Assembly (NCBI GenBank): GCA_963802255.1
Contig: CAWDHY010000001.1
Coordinates: forward strand, 235,842 to 299,841
DNA from: Candidatus Magasanikiibacteriota bacterium
GTDB taxonomy: Bacteria > Patescibacteriota > Patescibacteriia > Magasanikbacterales > GWA2-37-8
Reading direction: 5' to 3'
DNA length: 64,000 nucleotides
Part shown: positions 17,258-60,681 of the stretch, piece after piece
How the letters are laid out: each line of letters begins with the position of its first letter
How positions within the stretch are numbered: position 1 is the stretch's first letter
The notes under the pieces: model-generated
What the model was told of the DNA's origin: nothing
Database searches by the model: none
What the model saw: only the letters and a program-made list of their open reading frames with translations
Program-made: the position numbers and the translations under genes

Positions 17258-19637
17258 CACGGCGATACATGACTCCTCACAAACTTGCTTGAATGATTAC
17301 TCTGTTCAAACAATGCCAAAAAATAATTCTTATAAGATAATAAATCAGTCTGACTTGGGCATGGGTGATAATTCAAAATTCGCTTTTACAAATTTACCAT
17401 CTAATGTTGCGGTTTCCGGTTGTTATACAGCTGATAACGAAGGAGAATATGTATGGGGGATGGCCGCGAAATATTCAGCAGCCATGTATTGTCCGATAAA
17501 TCGTGATACTCTTATTTTGGATGGTGATAAAGGTGCGGGGCCATCGTCATGGGTAGGCGAAACAATGGCTTTATGCACATCAATTCAGGGAACGGGAACT
17601 GATGGAATGCGTTACGATGATGAACAGGAACGCTGGGAATGCGATGGCTGGAATCCTTGGCAGGATAATTACTTCACCGGTGGGCCTTACCATTGGAACA
17701 ATGCGAAATGGGCGGAAGGTTATGGATCGAAATTTTTTAACCGTAATGAGATTGAAAGAATAGATGTTTTTATTGATGAAATGAATAGCAAGGTGCGCAG
17801 TAATGGGTGGGTTAGTTTTATCCGCGATGCAGTAAATGCTGATGAAGGTGACGGAGATCGTTCATTTGTTGCGGAGCAATCGTGGGTTTATCCTGATGGC
17901 GATTCCAGTATCCATACTATTTCATTAGATGATCAAGGTAAATATGGCTGGACAGCATGGCAATATTATGGCGGCTCTGGGGCGGCTGGTTGGACTATTT
18001 CCGATGGCACAAATGACAAGGGCAGAATAATATCGCAAGGGCTGGATACCGACACCTACCATTTTGAAGATGTGGAATCAACAGCGGCAAATACCAAAAA
18101 TATTGGCATTCGTGTTGTTTGGGATGAAAGTAATAATTTACGGGGAATTTGGCTTAATTTGGAAGGAACCGATGGCGATGCTGATTATATAGGAGATGGT
18201 GACTGCGAACCTGGTTTGGACATGGGCACTGCCTTTATCATTCATTTCACTCACGGTAAGTGCAAGAAGTTTGCGCAAATATCTAATTCCGCCTCTTCAA
18301 CCGGTATTGATTTTAAACCCTATCCTAATTATTTGAATAACAATGAGGTTTCGTTATATGAATCTGACGCCTCCCGTTATCCGGGCAAAACCACGTGGGA
18401 TAATGAATTATATTACGCAAGACGAACTGATGATTTGAACGGAGGTAAATATGGCTTGGCTTTTAGTACGGAAGACGGATATGTTGATATTAGAAATAAA
18501 ACGGCGGCTTTTATTAATCCATTCACATATTACAAAAAAATTGTGCACGATAGGGAGTTTTTTCACACCCAATCAGGTGATATAAATGCAAATTATGAGT
18601 TTACCGGATATAATGCTGGTGTAGCTTTAGTTTCGGCTGATTCGCGAACAGCTAAAAGCAATAACCCCGATTTTTACGACTATACTTTTTCAGATATACC
18701 CAATTCAACTCCGTACGGTAAAATGTTAACGAAAATGTTTGCCAGAGCCGGTAGTTTTTGGGAGCTGGTTTATGATGGCGGATATAATAATGGATATTCA
18801 TCATATTATGGCAGTGTTGACGCCTCAAAACCGAGAACTTCGACGGGCCCGGTTGACCAAATGAATCGTTTTCCACCCCGTGTGGCGGCACCGTCGGGTG
18901 ATACATGGGAATTGGATAAAATATCTGTAAATGGACAAACTGAGGGGAATATTTATCTCTACTCCGGCTCGCAAACACACATAAAGTTTTATGCCTGGGC
19001 TCATGGTAATCAGATGCCGATTCGTCAAATAGTGGTAGATAAAGGCGATGCTCCGGATACGCGTATTGATTCCGGTATGGTAAGTTCCATTGGAAATCGC
19101 AAACCGGTTTGTGCTGATAAAGCGTGCGGGACAACTGCTGAACTTACTCAATATCCATGTTCCGACAGCAGTGATTGCGATGCAGGGGAAGTTGATTTAG
19201 GTACTTGTTCAATTTTAACCCATGAATATCAAAAATTTGGCAATACTGATGATACCGGGTGTAAAGCCAAGCCGTGGGATTTTGTCACTGATTATAATTG
19301 CCCTTATGGAACAATGGACATTGTGGACAATGGCGAACAAATTAGTGGCTCAAATATTGATTGGAATAAAATACGAACGGAATTTTACAATGCCCCGTAT
19401 GTCTGTCTTGCCCGTCCGCAAATATTTGTAATGGATAATTGGGGTTGGTGTGCAAGCCGTGATCCTGATGACGGCGGATGTAATTATGAAAGTAATGCTA
19501 GTGTAAAAGGATACGGCTGTTACTATGAGGCTGGAAGTAGTGGAATTATAATCAGTGTGATTATAACGATAAAAGCGAACCATGGGTTAATTATGACGGC
19601 TATGTGGTTGTGGTTCCGTTGCCCGGAAGTTAAATAA
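17070..19637 (+). CDS. Probable continuation of the giant surface protein after a +1 frameshift (855 aa), or a separate gene
   Basis: Overlaps the previous ORF by 187 nt in the +1 frame. No signal peptide or TM at its N-terminus. Same W/G/D/Y/N/C-rich composition. A terminator follows at 19676. Confidence 0.5.
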   Translation: MNLRLEYLICGILIRRRVMKLPTVRKTDLCVLKMSRYLIEIVSYASSEANGKVNLGGLLVGIDTAIHDSSQTCLNDYSVQTMPKNNSYKIINQSDLGMGDNSKFAFTNLPSNVAVSGCYTADNEGEYVWGMAAKYSAAMYCPINRDTLILDGDKGAGPSSWVGETMALCTSIQGTGTDGMRYDDEQERWECDGWNPWQDNYFTGGPYHWNNAKWAEGYGSKFFNRNEIERIDVFIDEMNSKVRSNGWVSFIRDAVNADEGDGDRSFVAEQSWVYPDGDSSIHTISLDDQGKYGWTAWQYYGGSGAAGWTISDGTNDKGRIISQGLDTDTYHFEDVESTAANTKNIGIRVVWDESNNLRGIWLNLEGTDGDADYIGDGDCEPGLDMGTAFIIHFTHGKCKKFAQISNSASSTGIDFKPYPNYLNNNEVSLYESDASRYPGKTTWDNELYYARRTDDLNGGKYGLAFSTEDGYVDIRNKTAAFINPFTYYKKIVHDREFFHTQSGDINANYEFTGYNAGVALVSADSRTAKSNNPDFYDYTFSDIPNSTPYGKMLTKMFARAGSFWELVYDGGYNNGYSSYYGSVDASKPRTSTGPVDQMNRFPPRVAAPSGDTWELDKISVNGQTEGNIYLYSGSQTHIKFYAWAHGNQMPIRQIVVDKGDAPDTRIDSGMVSSIGNRKPVCADKACGTTAELTQYPCSDSSDCDAGEVDLGTCSILTHEYQKFGNTDDTGCKAKPWDFVTDYNCPYGTMDIVDNGEQISGSNIDWNKIRTEFYNAPYVCLARPQIFVMDNWGWCASRDPDDGGCNYESNASVKGYGCYYEAGSSGIIISVIITIKANHGLIMTAMWLWFRCPEVK

Positions 19638-19763: not shown

Positions 19764-20375
19764 TCAAATGGGCCGAGGCAGGATGTTTTTGCGGTGAGGT
19801 TTGTGGACTAGGAACTGATTAGCGTTCGTAATCGTTTTCATCGTTTGCAGATTAGCACCCCAGAAATTCACGTGAAGCACGGCGGTTGAAACGGTATCGT
19901 TCCGATAGATCTTTACATGCTGATCATCTTCAGCGTTGTATGTCTCAAGCGGGAGCTCGGTGCCGAACAAAGCGTAATAAAAAGTTGCGGCGCCGGTCGA
20001 TTCCACCTTGCATTCGTCGCCGGAGACGGTTAGGATGATGGTGAGGAGGTGATCGGGAATATGCGAGTAGTTCACGATGTACCAATCGCCCTCGATGTCG
20101 TAGCATCCGTTGTCGGGGTCTTCGGTCTTCAGGCAATCGCAGGCCGTGGGGTCGTCGGTCTCGGTGTCGGTATCCGTATCGGTGTCCGAATCCGTGTCAG
20201 AATCGGTATCCGTATCGGTGTCCGAATCCGTGTCGGAATCGGTGTCGCCGTCGGCATCCCCATCCACGCAGTCGCCGTTCTCGTCCTCCACACAGTCGTC
20301 GCCCTCGTCGCAAGCGGTGACGAACGCGGCCATCATGACGATGGCCATGAGCGCGAAAATGTTTCTCATCGTCAT
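19764..20375 (-). CDS. Putative lipoprotein with an acidic (D-T/D-S)n dipeptide repeat region; GC-rich compositional outlier
   Basis: Signal peptide with a lipobox-like AFVTAC. Residues ~36-75 are GDADGDTDSDTDSDTDTDTD... The DNA in the first half of the gene is visibly GC-rich compared with its neighbours. Confidence 0.5.
   Translation of the reverse strand: MTMRNIFALMAIVMMAAFVTACDEGDDCVEDENGDCVDGDADGDTDSDTDSDTDTDTDSDTDSDTDTDTDTETDDPTACDCLKTEDPDNGCYDIEGDWYIVNYSHIPDHLLTIILTVSGDECKVESTGAATFYYALFGTELPLETYNAEDDQHVKIYRNDTVSTAVLHVNFWGANLQTMKTITNANQFLVHKPHRKNILPRPI
20151..20270. repeat. Imperfect 6/12-nt tandem coding repeats (gtcggtatccgtatcggtgtccgaatccgtgtc...) encoding the (DT/DS)n tract
   Basis: Directly visible periodicity. 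The antisense frame gives a spurious SVSVSESVS ORF. Confidence 0.6.
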
Positions 20376-21221: not shown

Positions 21222-21698
21222 CTATTTGATTGAGGCTCGTATCCGTGCCGCGATCTGTTCTAATGTGCGGTCATCGGCTCTAGGGCCGTCGGCTGAAGTA
21301 AGGAACCCGTCGTATATTTCATTGAATCGAGGTTGGTCCGACAGAATGGGGCGCCAGCGCTTCATTTTTGTCCCATGCATCGGATAGAGCTTCGCGTGTG
21401 CGTGGTCAATTCCGAACCCCTCCACAATCATACCTGTTCTGCCAACATCACGGAAGTACTTGTTAAGGTGGGCGGTCACGATGCGGGATGCCTCCATCAG
21501 CCCCGCGTAAATTGGCCCGGGCAGGCTGAAGACATCGCTCGGGTAGTGTTTTTTCGTGATGACGATGGTTGCACCGGGAGTATTGGGGTAAATGGACAAA
21601 AAAGCCAGGTGGTTATCATCTTCCCATATCTTGTGGCATGGTTCAGCGCCGACTATAATGGCACAGAATATGCAATTCTGTTGATGAATTTTTTTCAT
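21222..21698 (-). CDS. HIT (histidine triad) superfamily nucleotide hydrolase, Hint-like, with a variant triad HAHAK
   Basis: N-terminal CIFCAII...EDDNHLAFLSIYPNTPGATIVITKKHYP matches the Hint consensus (IFxKII...ED...AFxDIxP...LVIPKKH). The triad region is GIDHAHAKLYP. The gene looks GC-richer than its neighbours by eye. Confidence 0.6.
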   Translation of the reverse strand: MKKIHQQNCIFCAIIVGAEPCHKIWEDDNHLAFLSIYPNTPGATIVITKKHYPSDVFSLPGPIYAGLMEASRIVTAHLNKYFRDVGRTGMIVEGFGIDHAHAKLYPMHGTKMKRWRPILSDQPRFNEIYDGFLTSADGPRADDRTLEQIAARIRASIK

Positions 21699-21870
21699 CG
21701 TATTCTCCTTTCCTGATTAAAAGAGCCACTCTCCGTTTTATCAATAAATTTATAAATTGTCAAGACTGGAGATAGTGTGCTTGACAAGCAATGCTGAACG
21801 CCCTAAACTATCATGTTAATAGGTACTATAAGTAATATGGCATTTTTTATCATATTAAAGCTCATATAGA

Positions 21871-22995
21871 GTGAATATGTTACCTGAATATTTGCTTAAT
21901 ATAATCCGGCAGGATGATGACAAATTTTTTGGACATGAGCGTTCCGACTATGCAATTCCGATGTACTCTCCGGAGAGGCATTATTTGGATTTAACCAGAA
22001 GCAAATATTATCACGCGCTTCTTATAATGCGGAATGCCGTTTCAGCTTTATGCGACCATTATTTTGGAATCGAATTCGGTGCGAAAAAAGTTGATCTTTT
22101 TATGATCACGCCGAGCATCTCTTCACCAATGGGCCCCGGATCGAATTCAGCGGCAGTTCCAATAAAATTCGGTCAGTTTGACTCATTTTTAGTTGATTCG
22201 GCGCAGTTCGGGTTTGAACCGTTGTTGTTAAATAATTTTTCAAAAGTTTACTGCTATTTGCCATCAATGCGCGGCGAAGACCACGATCGAAGGCATCTTA
22301 ATCAATTTTTTCATTGCGAGGCAGAAATAAAAGGAACTCTTCAGGATGTTTATCCGATTGTGGAAAATCTCGTAAGAAATCTTTGCCAGACTCTCTCGAG
22401 CATGCCGAATATTATTAATTTAATCAGCGCGAGTCCGGAAGACACGGCATTGCATCTTCAACAGACGGCAGAAGTCCTATCTTTCCCGAAGATTAGTTTT
22501 GATGAAGCTGTGGATGTATTAGTGAAAAATGGCATGCGAGATTGTGTCATATTTACCGATACTGGTCGCGATATTACAGCTAAAGGTGAAAATGAACTTG
22601 CTAAGCATTTGAATTCTAATACACCTTTTTGGTTAACCGGTTTTGACCGTGATCGGGTTCCTTTTTATCAGAAGCCTCATAGTAATAGTCCAGATAAAGT
22701 TATAAATGCTGACTTACTATTTCCCCAGATTACTCCTGAATCTTTTGGTGGAGAAGTTGTCGGGTGCGGTGAGCGACAAGATTGCGCGGAGGAGATGAGG
22801 AGGTCATTACAGCGCCAGGGAATATCCGCCGAACCTTATGACTGGTATATTAATCTTAGGAATCAGCCAGGATATCAAACGACCTCCGGATTTGGCCTTG
22901 GCATTGAACGGTTTCTTACATGGGCGCTTTGCAGACCTGATATCAAGGATGTAATTATTTACCCTCGTTTAAAAAATGTCCGAACTTATCCTTAA
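21871..22995 (+). CDS. Class II aminoacyl-tRNA-synthetase catalytic-core paralog lacking an anticodon-binding domain (AsnA / Asp-Asn-RS-like ligase)
   Basis: 374 aa. Class II motif-2-like MRGEDHDRRHLNQFFHCEAE. Motif-3-like TSGFGLGIERFLTWAL. No N-terminal OB fold. Confidence 0.5.
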   Translation: MNMLPEYLLNIIRQDDDKFFGHERSDYAIPMYSPERHYLDLTRSKYYHALLIMRNAVSALCDHYFGIEFGAKKVDLFMITPSISSPMGPGSNSAAVPIKFGQFDSFLVDSAQFGFEPLLLNNFSKVYCYLPSMRGEDHDRRHLNQFFHCEAEIKGTLQDVYPIVENLVRNLCQTLSSMPNIINLISASPEDTALHLQQTAEVLSFPKISFDEAVDVLVKNGMRDCVIFTDTGRDITAKGENELAKHLNSNTPFWLTGFDRDRVPFYQKPHSNSPDKVINADLLFPQITPESFGGEVVGCGERQDCAEEMRRSLQRQGISAEPYDWYINLRNQPGYQTTSGFGLGIERFLTWALCRPDIKDVIIYPRLKNVRTYP

Positions 22996-23845
22996 TTATA
23001 TGGATTATTACAGCGACGTAAAAGAATATTTTAATGAAAAAGCACGCGAATATGACGATGTTGATAAACAGTTATATTGGGTTTTATCTGACCAGTATTT
23101 CAAAAAAATTTTAAGGAATGAACTGGATGATTTTTTTTCCAATTTTGAAAATGCACGCATTCTTGACGCTGGTGCCGGGACTGGCCGCTGGACCTTAATT
23201 TTAGATGAACTATTCGGGGCAAAAATCGGTAGCGGAGTTTTGGTGGATATTTCTTCAAAAATGCTTGATGAGGCAAAAAAGAAAATTGAAAAAAGCAATT
23301 TGTCGTCCAAGTACTCATGCCAAGAGGGTAATATTGAGAGTTTGGATTTTATAGAAAACGGTTCAATTGATCTGGCAATTTCTTTTTATAACGTCATTAG
23401 TTTTGTGGAACATCCTGAAAAGGCGCTGAGGGAAATAAGCGAGAAATTGCGGACCGGGGGCATCCATATTAGTATAGTGGCGAATAAGTATCACGCATAC
23501 TATTTTTCCATTTTGACTAATAGGTTAAATGAGCTGGATAATATATTTCACAAGTCGCTGATACGATTTAACGACGCTATGCCGGCAATTCATTGTTATA
23601 CGCCCGAAGAAATCAGGCAGCTATATGCTCAAAACGGTTTTGCCGATATCCGTGTTTTCGGCGGGCCAAATTTTATCTATCCGGGCATGGAAGAAACGAA
23701 AGTACTCGGGAATACTGAGCAAATTGCGAATAAATTAAGCGATCGGTCGATTTTTGACAAGATACTGTCAATTGAAATGGAAAATTACAGCAATCCGAAT
23801 ATTGTCGGTCGCGGAAATGTTTTACTAGTAATCGCAAAAAAATAA
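22976..23845 (+). CDS. Class I SAM-dependent methyltransferase
   Basis: Motif I ILDAGAGTGRWT, and an acidic post-I residue (VLVDIS). 289 aa. Alternative start at the ATG at 23000. Confidence 0.6.
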   Translation: MSELILNYMDYYSDVKEYFNEKAREYDDVDKQLYWVLSDQYFKKILRNELDDFFSNFENARILDAGAGTGRWTLILDELFGAKIGSGVLVDISSKMLDEAKKKIEKSNLSSKYSCQEGNIESLDFIENGSIDLAISFYNVISFVEHPEKALREISEKLRTGGIHISIVANKYHAYYFSILTNRLNELDNIFHKSLIRFNDAMPAIHCYTPEEIRQLYAQNGFADIRVFGGPNFIYPGMEETKVLGNTEQIANKLSDRSIFDKILSIEMENYSNPNIVGRGNVLLVIAKK

Positions 23846-23846
23846 T

Positions 23847-24833
23847 ATGTATGAAATCAGACCCGGTGACACTATAGGAATTGTTTCTCCTTCAGCGCCG
23901 ATTGCCGGTTATTGTCCGAAACGCTTGGACAGGGGAGCGAAACTGTTGGAACATATGGGCTATAAGGTTAAACTGGGGAAAAATGTTTCACAAATAAGTG
24001 ATTATACTGCCGGTTCCGCTTCCGACAGGGTTTCAGATATTCATAGCATGTTTGAAGACGTTGAAATTATGGCTGTTATCGCTACGGTTGGCGGTTTTAA
24101 TGCCAACGACTTGCTTGACAAATTGGATTATAAATTTATTGCCGATCATAAAAAGATTTTTATTGGTTATAGTGATATCACAGTATTATTGTCAGCACTA
24201 TCAAAATTATCGGGTATTAAGGCAATTATGGGGCCGATGATTTTGCCGCAATTCGGCGAATTTCCTGGCATGCTGGAATTTACAAAGGATTCATTCCAGA
24301 AAGTTACGCAGGGAATTGGAAGCGGAGAAAAATATGTTTTGCCTCAATCGGATCAATGGACTGAAGAGATGCTGTTGTGGGACAAAGAGGACAATCGGCC
24401 GAGAAATATGGCTGCGAATGAAGGATGGAAAGTAGTCAGCGGGGGGATGTCCAGAGGCAGATTGGTTGCCGGTAATTTAAATTCCCTGGTCAAACTTATA
24501 GGAACTCCTTATATCTATGATTTTCAAGACGCGATTCTTTTTTTGGAAGACGACGACAGTGAGTCGCCGGCTACAGTACGGCGCATGCTTATGCAAATGA
24601 AACAAGCAAACTTATTGGTGGGAGTTAAGGGCTTTGTGTTCGGCAGGTTTCAAAAAAAGAGCAATATCGCGGAACAAGACATAAGAAATATTTTTGAAGT
24701 TCTTTATGAAAAAGTTGAAATACCGGTAATAATGAATGCGGATTTTGGGCATACGGACCCCATGTTATGTTTGCCAATTGGAAACGAGGTCGTAATTGAT
24801 ACGGAAAAATCCGGGATAACAGTTATTTTATAA
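23847..24833 (+). CDS. LD-carboxypeptidase / microcin C7 immunity MccF-family serine peptidase (peptidase S66)
   Basis: N-terminal GDTIGIVSPSAP. Nucleophile motif IFIGYSDITVL. Acidic FLEDDDSE and late DFGHT consistent with an S66 Ser-Glu-His triad. 328 aa. Confidence 0.7.
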   Translation: MYEIRPGDTIGIVSPSAPIAGYCPKRLDRGAKLLEHMGYKVKLGKNVSQISDYTAGSASDRVSDIHSMFEDVEIMAVIATVGGFNANDLLDKLDYKFIADHKKIFIGYSDITVLLSALSKLSGIKAIMGPMILPQFGEFPGMLEFTKDSFQKVTQGIGSGEKYVLPQSDQWTEEMLLWDKEDNRPRNMAANEGWKVVSGGMSRGRLVAGNLNSLVKLIGTPYIYDFQDAILFLEDDDSESPATVRRMLMQMKQANLLVGVKGFVFGRFQKKSNIAEQDIRNIFEVLYEKVEIPVIMNADFGHTDPMLCLPIGNEVVIDTEKSGITVIL

Positions 24834-24886
24834 GAAAAGTTCTTTACAATCAAAATTGACGCCACAGAAGAGATAGGAGGTTGATA

Positions 24887-26203
24887 ATGAAAATGGGCGA
24901 TTTGCTTCGCTTTGCTCCGGAGGGTACAGAGTTCTCCGGTCGGGTTCGCTTGCTGAGTAAACGGAGATTCGGCAAGATCTGTTTTTGTGGGGTGCGGTTT
25001 CATGAAGACCAGGTCCAGATCATGATGAACGCGGAATTGGTGAATTTTCACGAGATTTCTCGCTTGCCGCTCGGAAGCCTCATCGTGGTTCGCGGTGTTA
25101 AAACTCTCACAAAGATCGGTGAACCAACCCTTCGCGTCACTGAAGCGGTAGTGGAATTTGTGTTCGACGGAACGATGCCGGACAAGTTTCATGGTTTGTC
25201 GTCAGGGCACCGGTATCGCGATCGGGTCCAAGATCTGATGGTAAATCCGGATTCTTTTTTCTTCGCGCGCAAGATGACAGCCGCGCTTATGGCAATGCGA
25301 CAGTATCTTTATAAGCAAGGATTCCGTGAATTCATCACCGGAGTTCTTCAGGAGCAGTTTGAAGGCGGACAGGCAAACGCATTTTCAACCTTGTGCCGTG
25401 CGAACGGACATTTGCTGTATTTGAGTCTGACGAGCGAACTCAAATTGAAACGCCTGATCGTGTCCGGTTTCGAGCGCGTGTTCGAAATTGCCCAGTCATT
25501 CCGTAATGAGGGGATAGACGCCATTCACTCGCCGGAGTTTACTCTCCTTGAGATGTACGCCGCCGACCATGACTGTCACGAAATGATGATTCTCTTGGAG
25601 CGGATGGTTTGCGAAGTGGTTGCCGCTTGTGAAGGATCGCCTGAAATTTTGTTCGCGGTGGATGACAATTATAATCACATAGTATCATACCAGCCGCCGT
25701 TCAAGCGGTTGACGTTCAGGCAGGCGTTCGAAACATTTGTCGGTGGTTGGAATGAGTGTGATATCGGCCATCTTTCCCAATGCATGCCAGATTTGTTCAG
25801 TCGGTCAATGACGAGATTCACTTGGCTTATGAAGGTCATCGAAAAGATATTAGCTCCCAAGTTGATAGAACCCACTTTCCTCACGGAGCTTCCGATTGGG
25901 ATGTCTCCCTTCGTAAAAAATCACGAAAGAGGCGAAACAAGTGACAGGGCTTTCTTCATAGCACAAGGCGTGTTTCTCGCCGATATCTACACCGACGAAA
26001 ACAGAATCGGGAAGGTTGAAGAAGCATTGCGTGTTCAGGCGTCGGAGACAAACAACCCGCTCAATGAGGAATACCTTGACGCTTTGAGGCTTGGTATGCC
26101 CCCAACGGCGGGTATCGGGCTGGGCTTGAATCGGTTGCTGATGCTCATGTTACACGATCTCCCACAAAACATTAAGGAAACCATGTTGTATCCGATATTG
26201 TGA
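24887..26203 (+). CDS. Lysyl-tRNA synthetase-like class IIb aaRS (short, GC-rich)
   Basis: N-terminal OB fold. GHRYRDRVQDLMVN (LysRS RYRQRYLDL-like). Motif 1 FREFITGVLQ. Motif 2 FRNEGIDAIHSPEFTLLEMY. Motif 3 PPTAGIGLGLNRLLMLM. GGAGG RBS lies 6 nt before the ATG at 24887. Visibly higher GC than the flanking genes. Confidence 0.7.
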   Translation: MKMGDLLRFAPEGTEFSGRVRLLSKRRFGKICFCGVRFHEDQVQIMMNAELVNFHEISRLPLGSLIVVRGVKTLTKIGEPTLRVTEAVVEFVFDGTMPDKFHGLSSGHRYRDRVQDLMVNPDSFFFARKMTAALMAMRQYLYKQGFREFITGVLQEQFEGGQANAFSTLCRANGHLLYLSLTSELKLKRLIVSGFERVFEIAQSFRNEGIDAIHSPEFTLLEMYAADHDCHEMMILLERMVCEVVAACEGSPEILFAVDDNYNHIVSYQPPFKRLTFRQAFETFVGGWNECDIGHLSQCMPDLFSRSMTRFTWLMKVIEKILAPKLIEPTFLTELPIGMSPFVKNHERGETSDRAFFIAQGVFLADIYTDENRIGKVEEALRVQASETNNPLNEEYLDALRLGMPPTAGIGLGLNRLLMLMLHDLPQNIKETMLYPIL

Positions 26204-26282
26204 ATGGGAATTGTCACCAAAATTGTATGTGTCAAATAATAAGTCTAGCGATTTTTTTCAGCTTTTTTTGGATGTTCCTCCC

Positions 26283-26316
26283 GGCGCACTAATCACGATT
26301 AGTGCGCCGTTTTTTT
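26283..26316 (+). terminator. Rho-independent terminator (ggcgcactaatcacgattagtgcgcc + T8)
   Basis: Perfect 9-bp stem and T-run directly after the LysRS-like gene. Confidence 0.75.
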
Positions 26317-26412: not shown

Positions 26413-29235
26413 ATGTTTAATTCCCTTCGTATAAAGGGAAAAATTCTTTGGGATGTCATAAAACCGCGCAACCGGCTGGGTTTATTGTCGGCTGTTTTTG
26501 TAGTGTCCGCATTGCTTGTACTCATTTTTGTTGTTGGTCCTCAGGCATACGCCTCATCAATTGGCGATGATATCGCCAGTATGATCGGGGAGTTGTTTTT
26601 ATGGATTGCGACAAAACTATTATCCCTTACTGTTTTCTTATTAAAATTTGTAATAGAAATTGCGAGCTACAACAATTACATCAATTCCGGAGCAGTCACG
26701 CTTGGCTGGATTTTAGTGCGCGATGTGACGAATATGTTTTTCGTCATCATTTTGATGGTCATCGCTTTTGGTACTGTGCTCGGCATTGAACAATATGAAT
26801 GGAAAAAATTATTGGTTAAATTTGTAATGGCGGCTATACTTGTAAATTTTTCCCGCGTTATTTGCGGAGTGATAATTGACGCGGCTCAAGTTTTTATGAT
26901 GACTTTTATTTCCGGCGTGGCTGCAGTTGCCGGCGGAAATCTTATCAACGCTTTAAAATTGGAGAGTATTTTGTCATACAGCAAGAACACTTCAGCCGAG
27001 GCTATGAAGCATATGAATGTTGTGGTCACTTCCATGTTCGCTTGTGTTTTCGCTTTTGCCACAGTGGTAGTTATGGGCGCGTATCTGGTGGTACTGATCG
27101 GACGCGCCATTACACTATGGGTGCTGATTATTTTATCGCCATTGTCCTTTGTGTTAAGTGTCATTCCAAAAACTCAGCAATATGCTTCGCAGTGGTGGAG
27201 TGAATTTAGCAACAACGTAATTGTCGGTCCGGTGCTTGCATTTTTTCTTTGGCTGGCGTTTGCCGTGGCCGGTGGGTCGGATGTTCATCAGGAGTTCTCA
27301 AGTGGTTCGGCATATCCGATGACAGACCCGGCGTCAGAGCAGGCGGCGATAGAGGCCATGGGTGCGCAGTCAGCCACAGAATCATCAGGTACAAATTTGA
27401 GCGCGGTGATGGAGTGGGATAATATGGCCAGTTTTATCATTGCCGTTGGCCTGCTTTTAGCCGGCGTCAAAACCGCGCAAAAACTTGGCACTGCCGGAGC
27501 CGGAGCGCTTGGTGCGGCCGGCGGAGCAGTCACTGGATTTGCTATGGCCGCGACCGGTGTGACCGCGGCCAGATGGGCGGCCAGAACGGGTGTGGGCGCG
27601 GCAAAAAGAGGGGCGATGAAAGCCGGAAAATTTGTTGCTATGAAAGCGCCGGTGGTTGGTGGTGATGCGTGGAAGAGGAGGGGGAGATCGATAAAGGCGG
27701 GTGTAGCGGAAAAATATCAGGATGTGATGAGGGGATATGAAGGAGCGACGAATAAATTGCGGAAAGGAAAGGGCTGGCGTCGTGCCTTGGGTTCTGTAGC
27801 GCCTTTAACGAGTTTTCAAAAAGAAAAAGATGTTCAGTTTAGAGAATCCATGGCAAAGGTAGCCAAAGAAGAGCGTGAAGAGTTGCATGGTAGGGGTGGA
27901 ACAGAACTCGGTAAAAGAGCCGGCAGAAGAAAGAAACACTTGGAACATGTGATTGAAGAAGAGGACTTTAATAAAAAAGCCGGTCTTATGCTTGCTGAAG
28001 CCGATGCATATAAGCGTGTCGGTAAAAATGAAATGGCGCAGAAAATATATAATGACCGGGATGCGATGATTTATGACAGAAAAATGAAACAGGATGTCGC
28101 CCACATGGACTATCCGCAATTAATGGGTGCGGCAGAAGCCGGCGCTCAAGCAACGGCGGATATAAAGAAAAAAATTGTAGAAGAGTATGGCAAAGGTGAT
28201 AAAGCTGATAAAAGTAAAATAGACGGCTATAGTGAAAAATTAAATGAGCAGCAATTACATAATACGCGACTTTTGGCACACGCAAGAGGAATGGGCGGCG
28301 CGACTGCTACGGATGTTAACAAAATGCTTTCTTCCTTTTCAGGCCAAGATGACACCGACCATAGCGCGGCAGCCGAGGCATCGCGGGTTTATGGTCTTGA
28401 CGCGAATAAGGAAAATGAGAAAAAAATATTAGAAGATTTAGTAAAAAAGTTTGGAAATAGCGGGCAGAATCAGGCGGCGATGAGCGCATTAGCAAAAGCA
28501 AATGCCGCTCTGATTAAGACCGATGCAACAAAAATTGGCGCAGCCGCTTCAATTAGCGAGGGAGTTGTAATTGATGAAAGGACAGGAGTAAGAAATGTTG
28601 TGCGAGGTTTCGGGAGGGGTGTTGGTGATTTTGATATAAAAGGAAAAAATCGAAAAGAAGAATATGAAAGATTGGATGAAAAAGAGAATCTCGCATTGCT
28701 GAGTGGGGATATTGAAAAAGCCGAGAAATTAGGAATAGAAAAAAAGGAACATGAATCAAATTCTTTTGAGACCAGTGAAGCAAAGGCCAAATATTTTAGT
28801 GAGGTTGCCGCAGTATCGTATCGGGAATCTACCGATGCTAACAGTATTGTTAGTTCGGCAAAAAGGGACTCGCAAGGAAATATCACTGATGTCGTAAAGT
28901 TTGATGACCGTCAGTTGGAGTCAATGAGCCGTTACCTTGGCGCCACGCCAGCCACTCAGATGAAGAAGGCTTTTCCACCGAGCATGATTGAGGCATTAAA
29001 TAAAATGGCGATGAGTGGAGAAAATGCCGCCTTTTTACTTAAAAGGTTGTCATCAAAAATGACCGATGATAATCAAATAAAGGCGCTCACGTCATTACTT
29101 GGGGGAATTGCCGGTAAAAGACCGGCGCAAGAAGCACAAACAACACCAGGAGGAAAAGCCCAGGCGGCGCGTGCGGCGACAGAAGAGAGTGATGAAATCG
29201 AAGCAGAAGAAGATGCAAAGTTTAACAAAAAATAA
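26413..29235 (+). CDS. VirB6/TrbL-like polytopic membrane protein with a long charged/coiled C-terminal extension (T4SS-like component)
   Basis: 940 aa. Multiple N-terminal TM helices over the first ~270 aa, then a Gly/Ala-rich segment, then a K/E/A-rich tail. The architecture matches VirB6/TrbL-type proteins. A VirB4 homolog lies downstream. Confidence 0.45.
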   Translation: MFNSLRIKGKILWDVIKPRNRLGLLSAVFVVSALLVLIFVVGPQAYASSIGDDIASMIGELFLWIATKLLSLTVFLLKFVIEIASYNNYINSGAVTLGWILVRDVTNMFFVIILMVIAFGTVLGIEQYEWKKLLVKFVMAAILVNFSRVICGVIIDAAQVFMMTFISGVAAVAGGNLINALKLESILSYSKNTSAEAMKHMNVVVTSMFACVFAFATVVVMGAYLVVLIGRAITLWVLIILSPLSFVLSVIPKTQQYASQWWSEFSNNVIVGPVLAFFLWLAFAVAGGSDVHQEFSSGSAYPMTDPASEQAAIEAMGAQSATESSGTNLSAVMEWDNMASFIIAVGLLLAGVKTAQKLGTAGAGALGAAGGAVTGFAMAATGVTAARWAARTGVGAAKRGAMKAGKFVAMKAPVVGGDAWKRRGRSIKAGVAEKYQDVMRGYEGATNKLRKGKGWRRALGSVAPLTSFQKEKDVQFRESMAKVAKEEREELHGRGGTELGKRAGRRKKHLEHVIEEEDFNKKAGLMLAEADAYKRVGKNEMAQKIYNDRDAMIYDRKMKQDVAHMDYPQLMGAAEAGAQATADIKKKIVEEYGKGDKADKSKIDGYSEKLNEQQLHNTRLLAHARGMGGATATDVNKMLSSFSGQDDTDHSAAAEASRVYGLDANKENEKKILEDLVKKFGNSGQNQAAMSALAKANAALIKTDATKIGAAASISEGVVIDERTGVRNVVRGFGRGVGDFDIKGKNRKEEYERLDEKENLALLSGDIEKAEKLGIEKKEHESNSFETSEAKAKYFSEVAAVSYRESTDANSIVSSAKRDSQGNITDVVKFDDRQLESMSRYLGATPATQMKKAFPPSMIEALNKMAMSGENAAFLLKRLSSKMTDDNQIKALTSLLGGIAGKRPAQEAQTTPGGKAQAARAATEESDEIEAEEDAKFNKK

Positions 29236-29268
29236 GATGCAAGTGATATATTTTCCATTTTAACGAAT

Positions 29269-30372
29269 ATGCGGAACTATAATCCACAGCAAAACAGTCA
29301 AACAAATTTTGCAGAATTGCAAAAAGATTTTTTTGAAACCGATATATTGGCGCCGGATGCTTTTGCGCCTATCAAAAAAGATTTGATTGATTATTTTAAT
29401 TCCGCCGACGCATCCGCTAAGAAAAATAGCAGGCAATTTTGGTTGTTGAACGTATATGCTACCTGGAAGTTCATTAATCAGCTTTCTCCGACTGAAGTAA
29501 TTGATTTTATGGTGGAACAAATTCCTGATGCCATACGGCTGGGATTTGATGTGACTGATAAATTGATCTGGTATATGGGGTTGAATGTTAATGATTTGGA
29601 AAATAGGATGATTTTTTATTCCGAGATAAGAACAAAAATTCTGACAGGAGATTTCTTTATTGACTCAGCCGGAAAAGAAATGACAATGAAAGATCTTTTC
29701 CAACAGATTCGCCTGCTTGACAGTTATGCGAATGACGCCATGCGGGCAGCTGAATTATATGAAAAGATTCAGCGAACATTATTCGCCGGTACGGAGAATG
29801 ATTCAATATATGAGTATTTAATAATTGACCACAGAGAGGCGGTAGAAAAAATGGTTGATTTGGTTAGCTTTATCAATACAGTAGAACCGGATAAGATTTG
29901 GGAAACGGTAGAAGGCGCCATATTTATTGAAACCACACAAACATCGCCGGATGAAGTGCCTGTACCGGTGGTGGAAAAACCGGAAATAATCAGACCGACA
30001 CCCGAATTGGAAATGAAAGCAAAGGCGCTTGCGGCTGCTGATATGAAACCGGGTTCAACTGAAAAACCTGTAAATTTGGCGACGGAGCCGGCAAAGCAAG
30101 CGGAACCTAAAAAATCTTTTCAACCGCCAAAATCTGTCCAGCCACCAAAGCCGGCAGAACCGGTACAACCAGTTACGCCAGTTAAGCCGTCCTATGCAGA
30201 AATTCGCAGAAAAATTGAAGCTGTGTTTCCGAAAGACGCGCAGGGTGAGTATACAAATTTAGACAGTTTACTTGCCGCTCTGCAGAGCGCAGCTGAGAAA
30301 TACAACGATCCGAAAATTTCCGAACTGATGTATTTTGACGAATCTGACAATAAATTTAAATGGAGCATATAA
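29269..30372 (+). CDS. Hypothetical protein with a C-terminal Pro/Lys-rich linker (T4SS-like cluster)
   Basis: 367 aa. PEPxKP repeats (KSFQPPKSVQPPKPAEPVQPVTPVKPS). No known domain. Confidence 0.4.
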   Translation: MRNYNPQQNSQTNFAELQKDFFETDILAPDAFAPIKKDLIDYFNSADASAKKNSRQFWLLNVYATWKFINQLSPTEVIDFMVEQIPDAIRLGFDVTDKLIWYMGLNVNDLENRMIFYSEIRTKILTGDFFIDSAGKEMTMKDLFQQIRLLDSYANDAMRAAELYEKIQRTLFAGTENDSIYEYLIIDHREAVEKMVDLVSFINTVEPDKIWETVEGAIFIETTQTSPDEVPVPVVEKPEIIRPTPELEMKAKALAAADMKPGSTEKPVNLATEPAKQAEPKKSFQPPKSVQPPKPAEPVQPVTPVKPSYAEIRRKIEAVFPKDAQGEYTNLDSLLAALQSAAEKYNDPKISELMYFDESDNKFKWSI

Positions 30373-30373
30373 T

Positions 30374-31357
30374 ATGGCTGAAAGTACAATGATTACGATA
30401 AAAAGACCGGATGGGACCATAGAAAAAATTTCTTTGGCAGAATTTATGGCGCGTAAGAAAAAAAAGACGGATGTGCCGGCGGCTTCTAAACCGGCCGTTG
30501 TCGTGGCTCCCGTAGTATCTGCGCCGCAAAAGACAAAACCGTCGATTCAGCCTTCAGAGTCCGTACCAAAGAATTTGCGCCCGCTGAACCATTCAAATAT
30601 TAAATCGCTTGTATCTGAAATTGTTAAGTCAAAGCCGATTGAAAAGTCGGCGACAACACCAAAAGTATCGGTTCCGGTTGTTGTGCCACCTGAAATAAAA
30701 AGGACTGAAGAGAAAAAAATATTTGTTCCGCAAAAACCCGTGGTTAATCCGCCGTCGGTTTCACGTTTTGAAAAATCTGACGCCGCTTCATTGCTTGATG
30801 AAGAAGTTCCACCCCCTGCGACAGTCAATAAACCATTGATCAAACCAATGGGAATGCCTACCGCCTTGATGAAAGAGAATGAAAACATCTTGCCGTCAAC
30901 CTCAGCCCCTGTAAATACTTTCGTGCATGCGCCTCAAACAATGCGAACTATGCAACCCCGTCATGAATCTGCTTTAAACAAGGAGAAGGATATAACAGCT
31001 CCGCCGGTCAGGCCGATGGTCCGTGATATATTTCCGGTGAAGCCATCAAACTTGGGGCCGGTTGATGAGATTGAATTTTTTACTTTAACTGATTTCCGGC
31101 GTTTATCTTCAAATCCGCCTGAAGCGGCGTCGCGTCTCAAACAGAAATTTTTGAATTTACGCGATGAATCGTATGTCTTGTTTATTGATGGCCTTGCCGC
31201 CTGGCGCCAGAGTCCGTTGTTTATTGAATATTCCGGTGCGGTCACTGAGGCATTAAATACAAAGAAGAAATTGTCGGACGTATTATTGTCTGACCCGAAT
31301 AAAATACAAATGAATGAAATTCAGGCTATAATACAAATGGAAAAAGATTTGATATAG
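30374..31357 (+). CDS. Hypothetical Pro-rich protein (T4SS-like cluster)
   Basis: GGAG RBS at 30362 and ATG at 30374 (MAESTMITIKRPDG). The ORF-track start at 30335 overlaps the upstream gene. Pro/Val/Ser-rich middle region. Confidence 0.4.
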   Translation: MAESTMITIKRPDGTIEKISLAEFMARKKKKTDVPAASKPAVVVAPVVSAPQKTKPSIQPSESVPKNLRPLNHSNIKSLVSEIVKSKPIEKSATTPKVSVPVVVPPEIKRTEEKKIFVPQKPVVNPPSVSRFEKSDAASLLDEEVPPPATVNKPLIKPMGMPTALMKENENILPSTSAPVNTFVHAPQTMRTMQPRHESALNKEKDITAPPVRPMVRDIFPVKPSNLGPVDEIEFFTLTDFRRLSSNPPEAASRLKQKFLNLRDESYVLFIDGLAAWRQSPLFIEYSGAVTEALNTKKKLSDVLLSDPNKIQMNEIQAIIQMEKDLI

Positions 31358-31363
31358 CGTCCT

Positions 31364-31795
31364 ATGCAAACACAATTTGTTGTGCCACAATTTATAGATG
31401 TTGAAGATAAGATTTTTGGTCCGGTTACGGCCAGGCAATTTGTGATATTACTTACCGCCGGCTTAACGTTATTTGTCGCTTTCAAACTTGCTGATTTCGC
31501 ATTATTCATTTTTTTAGCCGCGGTAATCGGTGGAGGAGCCCTGATTATCGCTTTTGTGAAAATTAACGGCCAGGCCTTTCATTATTTTTTGCTAAATATT
31601 ATTCAGACATTGAGGCGGCCTGCCTTGCGGATTTGGAATAAAGTTTATGAGACGAGTGAAATTAAGCGCATGCTTGCCGAGGGAATAGTGACAATACCGG
31701 AAGCGGCCAAACCGATTCCTCGGCTCTCATATAGCCGCATCCGCGATTTATCGCTGACAGTGAATACAGGCGGTTATTATCAGGCGGAAGATTAG
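31364..31795 (+). CDS. Small two-TM membrane protein, VirB3/PrgI-like candidate
   Basis: 143 aa with two hydrophobic helices (FVILLTAGLTLFVAFKLADFALFIFLAAVIGGGALIIAFV). Lies immediately upstream of the VirB4-like genes, as in Gram-positive-type T4SS. Confidence 0.35.
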   Translation: MQTQFVVPQFIDVEDKIFGPVTARQFVILLTAGLTLFVAFKLADFALFIFLAAVIGGGALIIAFVKINGQAFHYFLLNIIQTLRRPALRIWNKVYETSEIKRMLAEGIVTIPEAAKPIPRLSYSRIRDLSLTVNTGGYYQAED

Positions 31796-31819
31796 AAAAA
31801 ATATTAAAAAAGGTTGAGT

Positions 31820-32506
31820 ATGAAAAATAAAAAAGCAATAAATAAACGGGCGGCAATGTCAACGGCACAGAAAAATTTGTCTATTGCCGAGATCAAGAAT
31901 GATACCGTGGTGATGAAAGACGGAACTTTGCGGTCCGTGCTTATGGTTTCCAGCATTAATTTTTCCCTTAAAAATGAAGATGAACAGCAGGCGATTGTTT
32001 CATCATATGTGTCTTTTTTAAACGGCCTGGATCATCCATTACAAATAAATATTCAATCGCGTCAGCTTAACGTAAAACCGTATCTGGAAAAATTGGCAAA
32101 AAAAGAACGGGAACAGCCAAACGAACTTTTGAGAATGCAAATCGCTGATTACCGGTCGTTTGTTTCCGAACTGGTAAGCCTGGGCAAAATTATGAGCAAG
32201 CTTTTTTACGTAATTGTTCCATACGACCCGCTTTCAAACAAAAAACGCGGTTTCTGGTCGCGCGCTTCAGAGGTTATCAATCCGGCGATAACCGTGCGGC
32301 TGAAAGAAGAAAGGTTTATGAAAAGAAAATATGATTTGGATATGCGGGTGCGCCAGATTGAATCCGGCCTCACCAGTATGGGCTTGGAAGTGGTGCGTCT
32401 CGACACGCAATCATTAATAGAGCTTTTTTATACCACCTATAATCCGGATATTGCATTGTCCGAACCGCTCGCGTCGCTTGAAACATTAAACGTGGAAAAC
32501 ACATAA
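31820..32506 (+). CDS. VirB4-like N-terminal domain protein (apparent split of VirB4)
   Basis: ~228 aa, ending 4 nt before the ATPase ORF in a different frame. The two ORFs together (~850 aa) are VirB4-sized. Confidence 0.35.
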   Translation: MKNKKAINKRAAMSTAQKNLSIAEIKNDTVVMKDGTLRSVLMVSSINFSLKNEDEQQAIVSSYVSFLNGLDHPLQINIQSRQLNVKPYLEKLAKKEREQPNELLRMQIADYRSFVSELVSLGKIMSKLFYVIVPYDPLSNKKRGFWSRASEVINPAITVRLKEERFMKRKYDLDMRVRQIESGLTSMGLEVVRLDTQSLIELFYTTYNPDIALSEPLASLETLNVENT

Positions 32507-32510
32507 AAAT

Positions 32511-34379: not shown

Positions 34380-34417
34380 TTATGTCCGCGCCGGCCGGCG
34401 TTAATATTAAATAATAT

Positions 34418-58835: not shown

Positions 58836-60478
<1,643 letters not shown>

Positions 60479-60594
60479 TGGAGAAACTCTTCGCGAAAGC
60501 GAAGCGATCTCAGTCGAGTTCTGATATAAGATTAATTTCTTATCGGAGCGGAGTAAACGATCAAGGTTTTTGTCACATTTGTGCTGTTAAAAAA

Positions 60595-60627
60595 TTGACC
60601 GCTTTTTGCGGTCAATTTTATTTTTCC
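60595..60627 (+). terminator. Hairpin (ttgaccgctttttgcggtcaa) plus T-run downstream of the 16S
   Basis: 8-bp stem and T-rich tail ~115 nt after the 16S 3' end. Confidence 0.5.
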
Positions 60628-60681
60628 ACATTTTTTACTCTTGATTATTTTTTGATTTTGTTGTATTATTTTTTCACAAAA

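Follow-up and report, generated by a model that had tools for sequence, protein, structure and literature searches.

Here, we analysed a stretch of 64,000 nucleotides (the window) from a Candidatus Magasanikiibacteriota bacterium (GenBank assembly GCA_963802255.1, contig CAWDHY010000001.1, positions 235,842 to 299,841 of the forward strand), and in particular a gene resembling that of lysyl-tRNA synthetase (LysRS) within it. Four genes with the same orientation and hardly any space between them, the LysRS-like gene being the last, form a cassette in the order AgnA-like enzyme, methyltransferase, S66 hydrolase and LysRS-like protein. The window belongs to a 628-kb contig and is an ordinary chromosome segment of the type known from the candidate phyla radiation (CPR) or Patescibacteria, with genes for 16S rRNA, gyrB, ftsW, a prfA-like gene, ksgA, smc and clpP. 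The cassette and the features adjoining it are listed by window position.

21222 to 21698, minus strand: HIT-family gene, 158 amino acids, divergent from and adjoining the cassette; Pfam HIT 26 bits; best solved relative 3imi, E = 6e-11.
21781 to 21809, plus strand: promoter-like site TTGACA-17-TAAACT upstream of the four-gene cassette; 10/12 matches in a consensus scan, a consensus match only.
21877 to 22995, plus strand: AgnA-like enzyme, 372 amino acids; a class II core derived from asparaginyl-tRNA synthetase (AsnRS), without anticodon-binding domain; the open reading frame (ORF) opens with GTG at 21871.
23000 to 23845, plus strand: class I S-adenosylmethionine (SAM)-dependent methyltransferase, 281 amino acids from ATG at 23000; its ORF begins at 22976, overlapping the AgnA-like gene.
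23847 to 24833, plus strand: MccF-type S66 serine hydrolase, 328 amino acids, with N- and C-terminal Peptidase_S66 domains.
24875 to 24880, plus strand: Shine-Dalgarno sequence AGGAGG of the LysRS-like gene, by direct reading of the sequence.
24887 to 26203, plus strand: LysRS-like gene, 438 amino acids; OB domain at about residues 13-91, class II core with remodelled active site.
26282 to 26316, plus strand: intrinsic-terminator-like hairpin (26282-26309; 12-bp stem with 7 G-C pairs, loop of 4) followed by the T-run TTTTTTT, closing the cassette.

The first possible start codon in the frame of the LysRS-like gene is TTG at 24881; the likely start is ATG at 24887, which lies 6 nucleotides 3' of AGGAGG, and the resulting product of 438 amino acids is present as such in a public protein collection. 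A preliminary description of the gene, made from the sequence alone, had credited it with a strong ribosome-binding site and a terminator of its own, both of which are found at the positions given above. It had also counted 439 amino acids and called this shorter than typical bacterial LysRS. The count has to be corrected to 438, while the shortness is real and includes the lack of an N-terminal helix.

That the protein resembles LysRS, as the same description held, is borne out by sequence and fold. It matched the Pfam family tRNA-synt_2 with 177 bits, together with a weak OB match, and its closest solved structures are those of LysRS (9slz, E = 6e-64). An AlphaFold2 model (predicted local distance difference test 91.8; predicted template modelling score 0.90) combines a class II core with an OB barrel of five strands (residues 15-91), and Foldseek aligned this model to LysRS of T. 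thermophilus with a template modelling score of 0.85. Alignments begin at about residue 67 of E. coli LysU, hence the N-terminal helical extension is absent. The protein stays under the curated lysS cutoffs, with 275.7 versus 468 bits (NF001756) and 246.7 versus 427.6 bits (TIGR00499). A search of 5.8 billion proteins returned a family of about 100 clusters with 409-457 amino acids and 36-72% identity, and genuine LysRSs (about 498 amino acids) only at identities of 35% or less. Most family members are labelled as Patescibacteria (Magasanikbacteria, Staskawiczbacteria, Paceibacterota, Moranbacteria), and the NCBI name for them is 'amino acid--tRNA ligase-related protein'. Among the matches listed, a profile scan of genome contigs with the family alignment yielded canonical LysRS only, again at 35% identity or less. 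The LysRS-like gene is a neofunctionalised LysRS paralogue, belonging to a distinct family and not to housekeeping LysRS, and the label 'lysyl-tRNA synthetase class 2' carried by such proteins of 430-440 amino acids is wrong.

A review from 2022 lists LysU, PoxA/EpmA and LysX as known LysRS paralogues (PMC9437257). None of them fits the LysRS-like protein: EpmA, LysX and LysU were each tried as identities and rejected on domain content and scores. EpmA (also PoxA or GenX) is the EF-P beta-lysine ligase, a protein of about 325 amino acids that has no OB domain and keeps ATP-dependent activation. Like the LysRS-like protein it derives from LysRS, and it moves a lysine-type residue to an acceptor other than tRNA, as the LysRS-like protein may do by analogy. 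In contrast to EpmA, the LysRS-like protein has an OB domain, scores 122.7 bits with TIGR00462 (cutoff 286.9) and is found without epmB or efp context. Our literature search yielded no paper on the LysRS-like family, nor on its cassette in CPR bacteria. Two side observations belong here. At one locus (L116, 123-1222), the LysRS-like gene is split into two ORFs of 242 and 131 amino acids, a possible pseudogene, and no cassette genes lie within 4.4 kb downstream of it. Proteins P0288-P0291 (687-691 amino acids; PF01966, OB and tRNA-synt_2) are LysRSs with a fused N-terminal HD phosphohydrolase domain; P0288 is labelled Spirochaetes/Spirochaetota by one source.

We then compared individual residues, in LysU numbering, between 91 family members and 24 canonical LysRS, supplemented with 118 further canonical sequences. 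As in LysS and LysU, the LysRS-like protein combines the LysRS fold and an OB domain carrying the U35 triad with the lysine pocket E240/E278/Y280 and the arginines of motifs 2 and 3. The residues kept in the family are R72, R77, F84, Q95, E240, E278, Y280, R262, E264, H270, F274 and R480. The Arg/Phe/Gln triad of class IIb synthetases (here R77, F84 and Q95) reads anticodon base U35; its equivalents R26, F33 and Q44 in the window protein were invariant or nearly so in 51 sequences, and the triad is conserved in family and canonical enzymes alike. E240, E278 and Y280 are the residues binding the α- and ε-amino groups of lysine, R262, E264, H270 and F274 represent motif 2 and adenine stacking, and R480 motif 3.

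The picture is different at position 421. All 118 further canonical LysRS and 23 of the 24 in the main comparison have glutamate there, the lone exception (P0114) being a basal member of the LysRS-like family; among the 91 family members the position is occupied by F (56), N (10), D (9), H (6) or S (4). The equivalent of Glu421 in class II synthetases is the residue that holds the Mg2+ bridging the α- and β-phosphates of adenosine triphosphate (ATP) during amino-acid activation. Position 414 is always hydrophobic in the family. Since it is Gln in a large subtype of canonical LysRS, Glu421 alone is truly universal. Proline 208 of motif 1, present in 96% of canonical LysRS, is Gly in 96% of the family, and further changes are G215 to E, A217 to G, R236 to S, E428 to D (99%), L429 to E and D479 to N. 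Set against LysS and LysU, the protein thus differs by the missing N-terminal helix and Glu421, the hydrophobic residue 414 and the substitutions P208G, E428D, D479N and G215E. Altogether, 63 positions have the same conserved residue in the family and in canonical LysRS, whereas at 13 others each of the two groups has a conserved residue of its own. We read this pattern as the signature of a new function under purifying selection, in a site that appears remodelled and not decayed. Two subtypes can be told apart at positions 414/421/424/426, one with F/F/D/Y, including the window protein, and one with V/H/T/S.

A canonical lysS usually accompanies the LysRS-like gene in related lineages, whose loci are given by L numbers here. 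The lysS genes adjoining it in L009 and L011 score 541 and 518 bits, over the lysS cutoff, and canonical lysS is also adjacent in L093, L097, L102, L103, L111, L127 and L136, mostly as a fifth operon gene after a gap of about 15 bp. At least 25 LysRS-like clusters lie on the same contig as a canonical LysRS cluster, as judged with one lysS as query and pairing by equal longest-contig size. The second lysS that the preliminary description had wanted checked is therefore present in relatives, adjacent or on the same contig, and lacking in the 64-kb window. LysRS-like proteins share 26-31% identity with their own adjacent lysS product and 32-36% with LysRS of the Chloroflexota, Deinococcota and Eremiobacterota type. 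A recent tandem duplication of lysS was rejected, as the identity to the neighbour is below that to LysRS of other phyla. The proposed look for closest homologues within the same phylum gave the corresponding answer: the nearest true LysRSs come from other phyla (33-36%), and CPR LysRS reach only 26-31%. A resistance signature in the adjacent lysS was considered too and dropped, as the pattern L271/Q414/K424 marks a widespread LysRS subtype and provides no evidence of resistance; cassette-specific substitutions were not found in the adjacent lysS genes.

The LysRS-like gene also stands out by its base composition. Its GC content of 0.493 exceeds that of the three genes upstream (0.413, 0.374 and 0.410), of the gene downstream (0.453) and of the whole window (0.431), which confirms the GC contrast seen by eye in the preliminary description. 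At third codon positions, the GC content (GC3) is 0.583, compared to 0.365-0.404 in the three upstream genes, and lies 2.6 standard deviations over the remaining 42 ORFs (0.410±0.067); the gene ranks second or third of 43 by this measure. Two nearby ORFs, the HIT gene (0.585) and a TD-repeat lipoprotein gene (0.71), are at least as rich. GC at first and second positions is ordinary, hence the shift is a synonymous one. In its choice among synonymous codons, the gene departs from the remainder of the window (chi2 = 133, 41 degrees of freedom; fourth of 43 by scaled distance), with AAG, TTC, CAC, ATC, CAG and GAC enriched, and the core genes NusG, GyrB, RF, S16, ClpP, GreA and TrmD have GC3 values of 0.30-0.43 in the window. 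The comparison with core genes that had been called for thus sets the LysRS-like gene apart. The repeat ORF mentioned above (window 19764-20375, minus strand; 203 amino acids) is secreted or lipoprotein-like and has a signal peptide, a lipobox-like site (VTAC) and an extended (T/S)D repeat. The GC3 of this ORF, 0.71, is matched by 0.74 and 0.71 in its orthologues at L001 and L004 and causes a GC spike at 20.0-20.4 kb.

The same contrast recurs in relatives. The orthologues of the LysRS-like gene at L001 (72% identity) and L004 (66%) exceed the other three cassette genes in GC3 by 0.20 and 0.13, respectively, and the LysRS-like gene is above this trio in 14 of 17 lineages (mean +0.089; Wilcoxon p = 2e-4, with lineages that are not independent). 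Canonical lysS genes adjoining the cassette have GC3 values equal to or above those of the LysRS-like gene. The preliminary description had offered horizontal acquisition; we rejected recent horizontal transfer as the source of the GC excess: the contrast is old, runs across lineages and bears no mark of recent transfer into this genome. It may mean that the LysRS-like gene and the trio have separate origins, or that codon pressures act on single genes.

These data also bear on the idea that the gene is a horizontally acquired or replaced housekeeping LysRS from a GC-richer donor and the sole lysine-charging enzyme of the genome. Its GC3 and codon usage unlike those of core genes would suit such a replacement, as would the closest true LysRSs coming from other phyla, and a canonical lysS of this genome was detected neither within the 64 kb of the window nor among the best 120 relatives of a related lysS. 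However, the window covers 64 kb of a 628-kb contig only, the GC contrast is common to orthologues and recurrent across lineages, and the same type of protein occurs together with canonical lysS in the related clusters counted above. With the loss of Glu421 and of the motif-1 proline and with scores far from the lysS cutoffs added, we consider it very improbable that the gene is a replaced housekeeping synthetase, and we do not retain this claim of the preliminary description.

Which partners does the LysRS-like gene have? The AgnA-like protein scores 111 bits with tRNA-synt_2, 148 with asnS (cutoff 343) and 128 with asparagine synthetase A. Relative to AsnRS of P. horikoshii (1x54), motifs 2 and 3 and both metal ligands for Mg are kept, hence the protein is predicted to still adenylate its substrate. 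It shares 33% identity over 336 amino acids (E = 8e-46) with AgnA, the 'agrocin 84 synthetase' of plasmid pAgK84. With 56-60% identity over more than 120 clusters, its family is far more conserved than the LysRS-like family. Homologues outside the CPR were found on symbiosis plasmids of Bradyrhizobium barranii and B. elkanii, where the gene order is S66, AgnA-like, HAD and methyltransferase, and on a plasmid of Calothrix parasitica. The Bradyrhizobium protein is 56% identical to that of the window and has no partner resembling an aminoacyl-tRNA synthetase (aaRS). At the B. barranii locus (L128, plasmid pBb323S2a, 7988-11773 of the locus), genes for an S66 protein, the AgnA-like protein, a HAD protein and a SAM-dependent methyltransferase adjoin nodU; the hosts are soybean symbionts. 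On Streptomyces, Bacillus and Pantoea plasmids, too, AgnA-like genes are paired with SAM-dependent methyltransferase genes, in surroundings of a secondary-metabolite-like type.

The methyltransferase matches Methyltransf_25, Methyltransf_11 and Methyltransf_31 (E = 1e-14 to 1e-17), has relatives of 281-283 amino acids, and its gene is always adjacent or close to the AgnA-like gene. The S66 protein matches solved MccF and MccF-like proteins with 174-181 bits, compared to 58-93 bits for LdcA, and is 31% identical to AgnC5. Its residues Ser109, His302, Glu/Asp234 and Trp178 are conserved in 15 of 15 lineages. Trp178 aligns with W186 in the insertion loop of E. coli MccF, a residue stacking on the adenine of processed microcin C. 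From its sequence, we place the protein in the MccF clade, with the catalytic triad and a putative adenine-stacking tryptophan. The HIT protein contains the motif DHAHAKL, i.e. HxHxK instead of HxHxH. Its gene is present in L001 and L003 and absent from L004, where a nucleotidyltransferase/HepT pair takes its place, and from distant loci; it is an accessory part limited to the closest relatives of the window.

The same four genes surround relatives of the LysRS-like gene at 72%, 66%, 50% and 46% identity. For wider sampling, we scanned a metagenome collection with a family-specific degenerate DNA pattern (QSFRNEG-x4-H-x-PEF), which in a control on known loci matched 10 family loci and 0 of 80 canonical loci. 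The loci were mapped with purpose-built hidden Markov models and dereplicated at 90% identity, resulting in 21 lineages. All lineages with flanking DNA contain the AgnA-like gene and the methyltransferase gene, and most contain the S66 gene. Gene order and orientation differ in the distant lineages L097, L106, L108, L118, L119, L120 and L125, and functional linkage is thus favoured over inherited synteny. We found no further recurrent neighbour, such as a transporter or precursor peptide, around the cassettes, and no riboswitch or T-box in the window, in which Rfam at gathering thresholds reported 16S rRNA and tRNAs only. Anti-phage defence was considered and set aside, as PADLOC gave no match except generic methyltransferase similarity.

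Additional genes were seen at some cassettes. A NUDIX gene lies 3' of the cassette in two lineages. In four lineages we observed the core of an RlmN/Cfr-like radical-SAM adenine C-methyltransferase (about 301 amino acids, without the N-terminal RNA-binding region), at L007 3428-4333, L107 2202-3125, L115 10071-10979 and L121 1491-1802; in one cassette subtype this gene sits between the S66 and the LysRS-like gene. Such an insert hints at adenine C-methylation in the product or in tRNA. In the window, a type IV secretion-like block (26413-35008, plus strand) follows directly 3' of the cassette and comprises a VirB6/TrbL-like membrane protein of 940 amino acids (its gene reaching 58% GC at 27.2-27.8 kb), PrgI, a TraC-like protein and a VirB4-type ATPase. 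This block is probably not part of the cassette, being syntenic only in the closest relatives L001 and L004.

Could the cassette simply serve primary metabolism or translation? The AgnA-like protein would then be an AsnA-type asparagine synthetase, the S66 protein an LD-carboxypeptidase and the LysRS-like protein a tRNA-dependent helper, together active in, for example, the tRNA-linked synthesis or salvage of an amino acid or a cell-wall peptide. In favour of such a role, the host genomes are minimal and a conserved transporter is lacking; in many CPR lineages, the cassette has the orientation of essential lysS and ends up about 15 bp from it, and the AgnA-like score for asparagine synthetase A nearly equals that for asnS. 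On the other hand, the S66 protein belongs with MccF, tryptophan included, and is distant from LdcA, while the nearest annotated contexts of AgnA-like and methyltransferase genes are secondary-metabolite clusters. The distribution is patchy and mobile, with only about 100 clusters in the 5.8 billion proteins searched and with cassettes carried by the Bradyrhizobium symbiosis plasmids, the Calothrix plasmid and a contig that also contains an integrase fragment. A role in primary metabolism therefore seems a long shot to us.

A second type of cassette was found on the Calothrix plasmid and in two metagenomic genomes. These sister cassettes (L135 1252-3009 and 5041-6132; L134 5897-7000; L130 7838-8935) contain the AgnA-like gene, the S66 gene and the methyltransferase gene, and a protein of 363-367 amino acids replaces the LysRS-like protein. 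The three partner proteins form one family (38-43% identity), carry a DPT-x-x-F-x-G motif and show a weak likeness to the N-terminal catalytic part of alanyl-tRNA synthetase (AlaRS), with E = 8.5e-4 and 1e-3 for alaS models and E = 0.017 for AlaRS 1riq. A bona fide thrS (664 bits) and an aminotransferase gene belong to one of the sister cassettes, and a GNAT gene to another. The AgnA-like enzyme of the sister cassettes is 56-64% identical to that of the window (55-64% across all cassette types), and identity matrices reveal equal conservation in both cassette types and in the partner-less Bradyrhizobium version. The S66 protein and the methyltransferase, by contrast, split by partner type, with identities of about 30% between and 35-86% within the types. 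This is most simply read as a constant enzyme for scaffold synthesis, combined with a tailoring step and a hydrolase that are each specific to the partner. As the S66 protein co-varies with the partner type, a product is favoured in which the hydrolase recognises the amino acid of the partner.

The sister cassettes also inform on whether the LysRS-like protein could be a non-catalytic binder of tRNA-Lys, of a lysyl-adenylate-like ligand or of both, i.e. a decoy sequestering the toxic product, or else, in the manner of HisZ or SLIMP, a regulatory or specificity subunit of the AgnA-like enzyme. The family has lost catalytic metal ligands and kept residues for ligand and tRNA binding, and the losses are complementary, in that the AgnA-like core has its Mg ligands but no anticodon domain. 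The AgnA-like enzyme, however, works in cassettes without a LysRS-like partner and is equally conserved there. Moreover, the 13 positions fixed to new residues in and around the active site (E215, G217, D428, E429, N479 and G208 among them) suggest a new catalytic or substrate geometry and not decay, and hydrolases that destroy such compounds are already part of the cassette. We regard a mere binding role as distinctly unlikely.

The arrangement of the cassette resembles that of the agrocin 84 genes on pAgK84, where agnA precedes the SAM-dependent agnB1, where agnB2, encoding an agrocin-resistant leucyl-tRNA synthetase (LeuRS), comes next, and where the MccF-like AgnC5 is also encoded in the cluster. 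An AgnA homologue, a SAM-dependent enzyme and an aaRS-type gene thus occur in the same arrangement in both, plus an MccF-like S66 protein. AgnA has been proposed to attach an acyl-amide to adenosine monophosphate (AMP) by the phosphoramidate bond of agrocin 84, AgnB2 confers self-immunity to agrocin 84, and agn-like clusters of actinobacteria carry a methionyl-tRNA synthetase (MetRS) (PMC8323819). The two systems differ in that AgnB2 is a full, active, resistant LeuRS, that the window methyltransferase is not specifically related to AgnB1, and that the cassette, with only 4-5 genes, has no counterparts of AgnC1-C7 except the AgnC5-like S66 protein, none of AgnD-F and none of the export pump AgnG. 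In microcin C immunity, MccF and the HIT enzyme MccH detoxify aminoacyl-nucleotide phosphoramidates (PMC8323819). The S66 protein of the window, with the MccF triad and Trp, and the HIT protein adjoining the cassette are reminiscent of this pair. Unlike microcin C loci, the window cassette is devoid of the MccA peptide, of MccB (ThiF-like) and of the MccC pump, and its HIT protein, with HxHxK, is not a constant companion of the cassette.

By its position, the LysRS-like gene occupies the slot of agnB2 after agnA-agnB1, and the actinobacterial clusters have a MetRS in a comparable manner (PMC8323819). An active LysRS resistant to a lysyl-adenylate mimic made by the cassette, which would keep tRNA-Lys charged in the producer as AgnB2 or AcmD do in theirs, would fit this slot and suit the retained anticodon triad, lysine pocket and arginines of motifs 2 and 3; E215, D424 and E429 might replace the lost metal ligands. 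Yet Glu421, universal in canonical LysRS, is lost throughout the family, the motif-1 proline has become glycine, and the scores stay far under the lysS cutoffs. A normal lysS without cassette-specific substitutions adjoins in most lineages, the equivalent in sister cassettes is an AlaRS-like fragment of about 365 amino acids that is unable to be a working AlaRS, and the trio of AgnA-like, methyltransferase and S66 genes exists in Bradyrhizobium without any aaRS paralogue. We therefore judge a self-immunity synthetase to be unlikely, albeit worth keeping in mind. The preliminary description had also named an antibiotic-resistant paralogue as a possibility: the paralogue and its antibiotic-linked context hold, the resistant working synthetase is the less likely part, and the altered site as well as the AlaRS-like counterpart point instead to a biosynthetic enzyme that uses aminoacyl-tRNA.

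What, then, could a LysRS-like protein without Glu421 do? Our functional proposal builds on the residue pattern together with an analogy to AcmF and SbzA, chemistry for which Zheng et al., ACS Catal 2024, is said to be the primary report. AcmF, from the ascamycin pathway of Streptomyces sp. 80H647, is a truncated AlaRS-like protein that lacks what is needed to bind ATP and activate alanine; with Ala-tRNA(Ala) as donor, it acylates the sulfamoyl NH2 of dealanylascamycin, giving an alanyl-adenylate mimic (PMC12945691). The clustered canonical AlaRS AcmD feeds AcmF with Ala-tRNA and is also a more resistant copy, AcmE is a hydrolase removing the alanyl group, and the IleRS-like SbzA (isoleucyl-tRNA synthetase-like) of the SB-203208 pathway performs an analogous reaction with Ile-tRNA (PMC12945691). 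Judged by its sequence, the LysRS-like protein shares the combination typical of AcmF and SbzA: an aaRS origin, kept tRNA recognition and lost activation residues, in this case the activation metal ligand. A clustered cognate canonical aaRS is present in most related lineages, comparable to AcmD, and absent in the window, L001 and L004; the MccF-type S66 protein parallels AcmE. There are differences, too. The parent of the LysRS-like protein is a class IIb LysRS and those of AcmF and SbzA are an AlaRS and a class I IleRS, without sequence orthology; the LysRS-like family retains adenine-site residues, unlike AcmF; and the cassette lacks sulfamate genes, its scaffold probably being of the phosphoramidate type, and resides in CPR hosts and not in Streptomyces. 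The partners in the sister cassettes are candidate AcmF-like enzymes outside Streptomyces, one of them on the plasmid of Calothrix parasitica.

By this analogy, we propose that the LysRS-like protein is a Lys-tRNA-dependent lysyl transferase making a lysyl-nucleotide mimic of lysyl adenylate, a reading to which we assign a probability of roughly 0.5. The protein would no longer activate lysine with ATP. Instead, Lys-tRNA(Lys) would be supplied by ordinary LysRS, and the tRNA would dock through the anticodon-binding domain, while the lysyl group and an adenosine moiety are held in the old active site. An adenosine-containing acceptor, with a scaffold produced by the AgnA-like enzyme and the methyltransferase, would occupy the former ATP/AMP site, and its N-nucleophile would attack the lysyl ester, in effect a reversal of the tRNA-charging step. 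Such a reversed reaction needs no site for Mg2+ and pyrophosphate and would therefore account for the hydrophobic residues at the Glu421 position and at 414. Speculatively, the acceptor could be a phosphoramidate such as AMP-NH2 or its methyl ester, yielding a lysyl-adenylate mimic; alternatively, and equally speculatively, the α-amine of an Asx-adenylate mimic might be acylated to a dipeptidyl nucleotide. The product would be a lysyl-nucleotide mimicking an aminoacyl adenylate, i.e. a synthetase inhibitor of the class of agrocin 84, microcin C and ascamycin. The MccF-type S66 protein, joined by the HIT protein in the window, would cleave the aminoacyl-N or the P-N bond for self-protection or processing.

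Several points weigh against a Lys-tRNA-dependent transferase of this kind. The adenine site and the arginines of motifs 2 and 3 are kept in the LysRS-like family, whereas AcmF lost most of its ATP-binding residues, and a metal site permitting residual adenylation could in principle be re-formed by E215, D424 and E429, acidic residues newly gained in the family. The window and its two closest relatives, L001 and L004, have no adjacent lysS and carry type IV secretion-like genes there instead; a search for the lysS of this genome, covering the 64-kb window and the best 120 relatives of a related lysS, had no success. No tRNA-Lys gene lies near any cassette, and no exporter or transporter is conserved with it. 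The methyltransferase has no specific similarity to AgnB1, and with identities of only 31-33% to AgnC5 and AgnA, the parallel to agrocin is one of family membership and arrangement, not of orthology. Finally, the AlaRS-like label of the partner in sister cassettes depends on weak scores (E = 1e-3 to 2e-2).

The kind of system considered here is known, both as aaRS-derived, aminoacyl-tRNA-dependent builders of adenylate mimics and as agn- or mcc-type clusters; a LysRS-derived member is not known, nor are its compact modular cassette and its occurrence in CPR hosts. Taking all parts together, a LysRS lineage may have become a Lys-tRNA(Lys)-dependent transferase acting on a phosphoramidate-type adenosine nucleotide made by the AgnA-like enzyme, so that a non-hydrolysable lysyl-adenylate mimic results. 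Among enzymes of the AcmF kind, it would be the first to derive from a class IIb aaRS, and its pathway would be the first to an aaRS inhibitor in the ultra-small CPR bacteria; a swap between LysRS-like and AlaRS-like partners would change the warhead. This combined scenario is tentative, and we see the odds as somewhat against all of its parts holding at once.

Elsewhere in the window, three further observations were made. Two ORFs of 1998 and 855 amino acids (11261-17257 and 17070-19637, plus strand) lie in different frames and overlap by 187 nucleotides; they match one gene in L001 and L004 (2802 and 2751 amino acids, both running off the locus ends), and the gene, for a giant surface protein, could be frameshifted, a pseudogene or misassembled in the window. 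The 16S rRNA (region 58829-61095, plus strand) spans 1649 nucleotides compared to 1533 model positions, with an insertion of about 115 nucleotides. It is followed by tRNA-Val(GAC), a weak tRNA-like match at 60849-60929 (31 bits; not called by ARAGORN), tRNA-Ile(GAT) and then protein genes, and no 23S rRNA adjoins it in the window. An ORF of 575 amino acids (7765-9492, plus strand) encodes a Sua5/TsaC domain (t6A synthesis) fused to a DUF4015 glycoside-hydrolase-like domain.

The GC anomaly alone would have suggested a wrong story of recent transfer. If the proposed function is true, class IIb LysRS would be the third, independent aaRS lineage among the charged-tRNA-using builders of adenylate mimics, after AcmF (AlaRS) and SbzA (IleRS), and AgnA-type enzymes would gain a testable role in chemistry of the agrocin 84 type. 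The compact, modular cassette, with its constant AgnA-like enzyme and exchangeable aaRS-like partner, hydrolase and methyltransferase, would be minable from genomes, and new inhibitors of the synthetases for lysine, alanine or threonine could be among its products. Despite their nearly complete lack of biosynthetic capacity, episymbiotic CPR bacteria may thus keep a dedicated small-molecule weapon or signal directed against translation.

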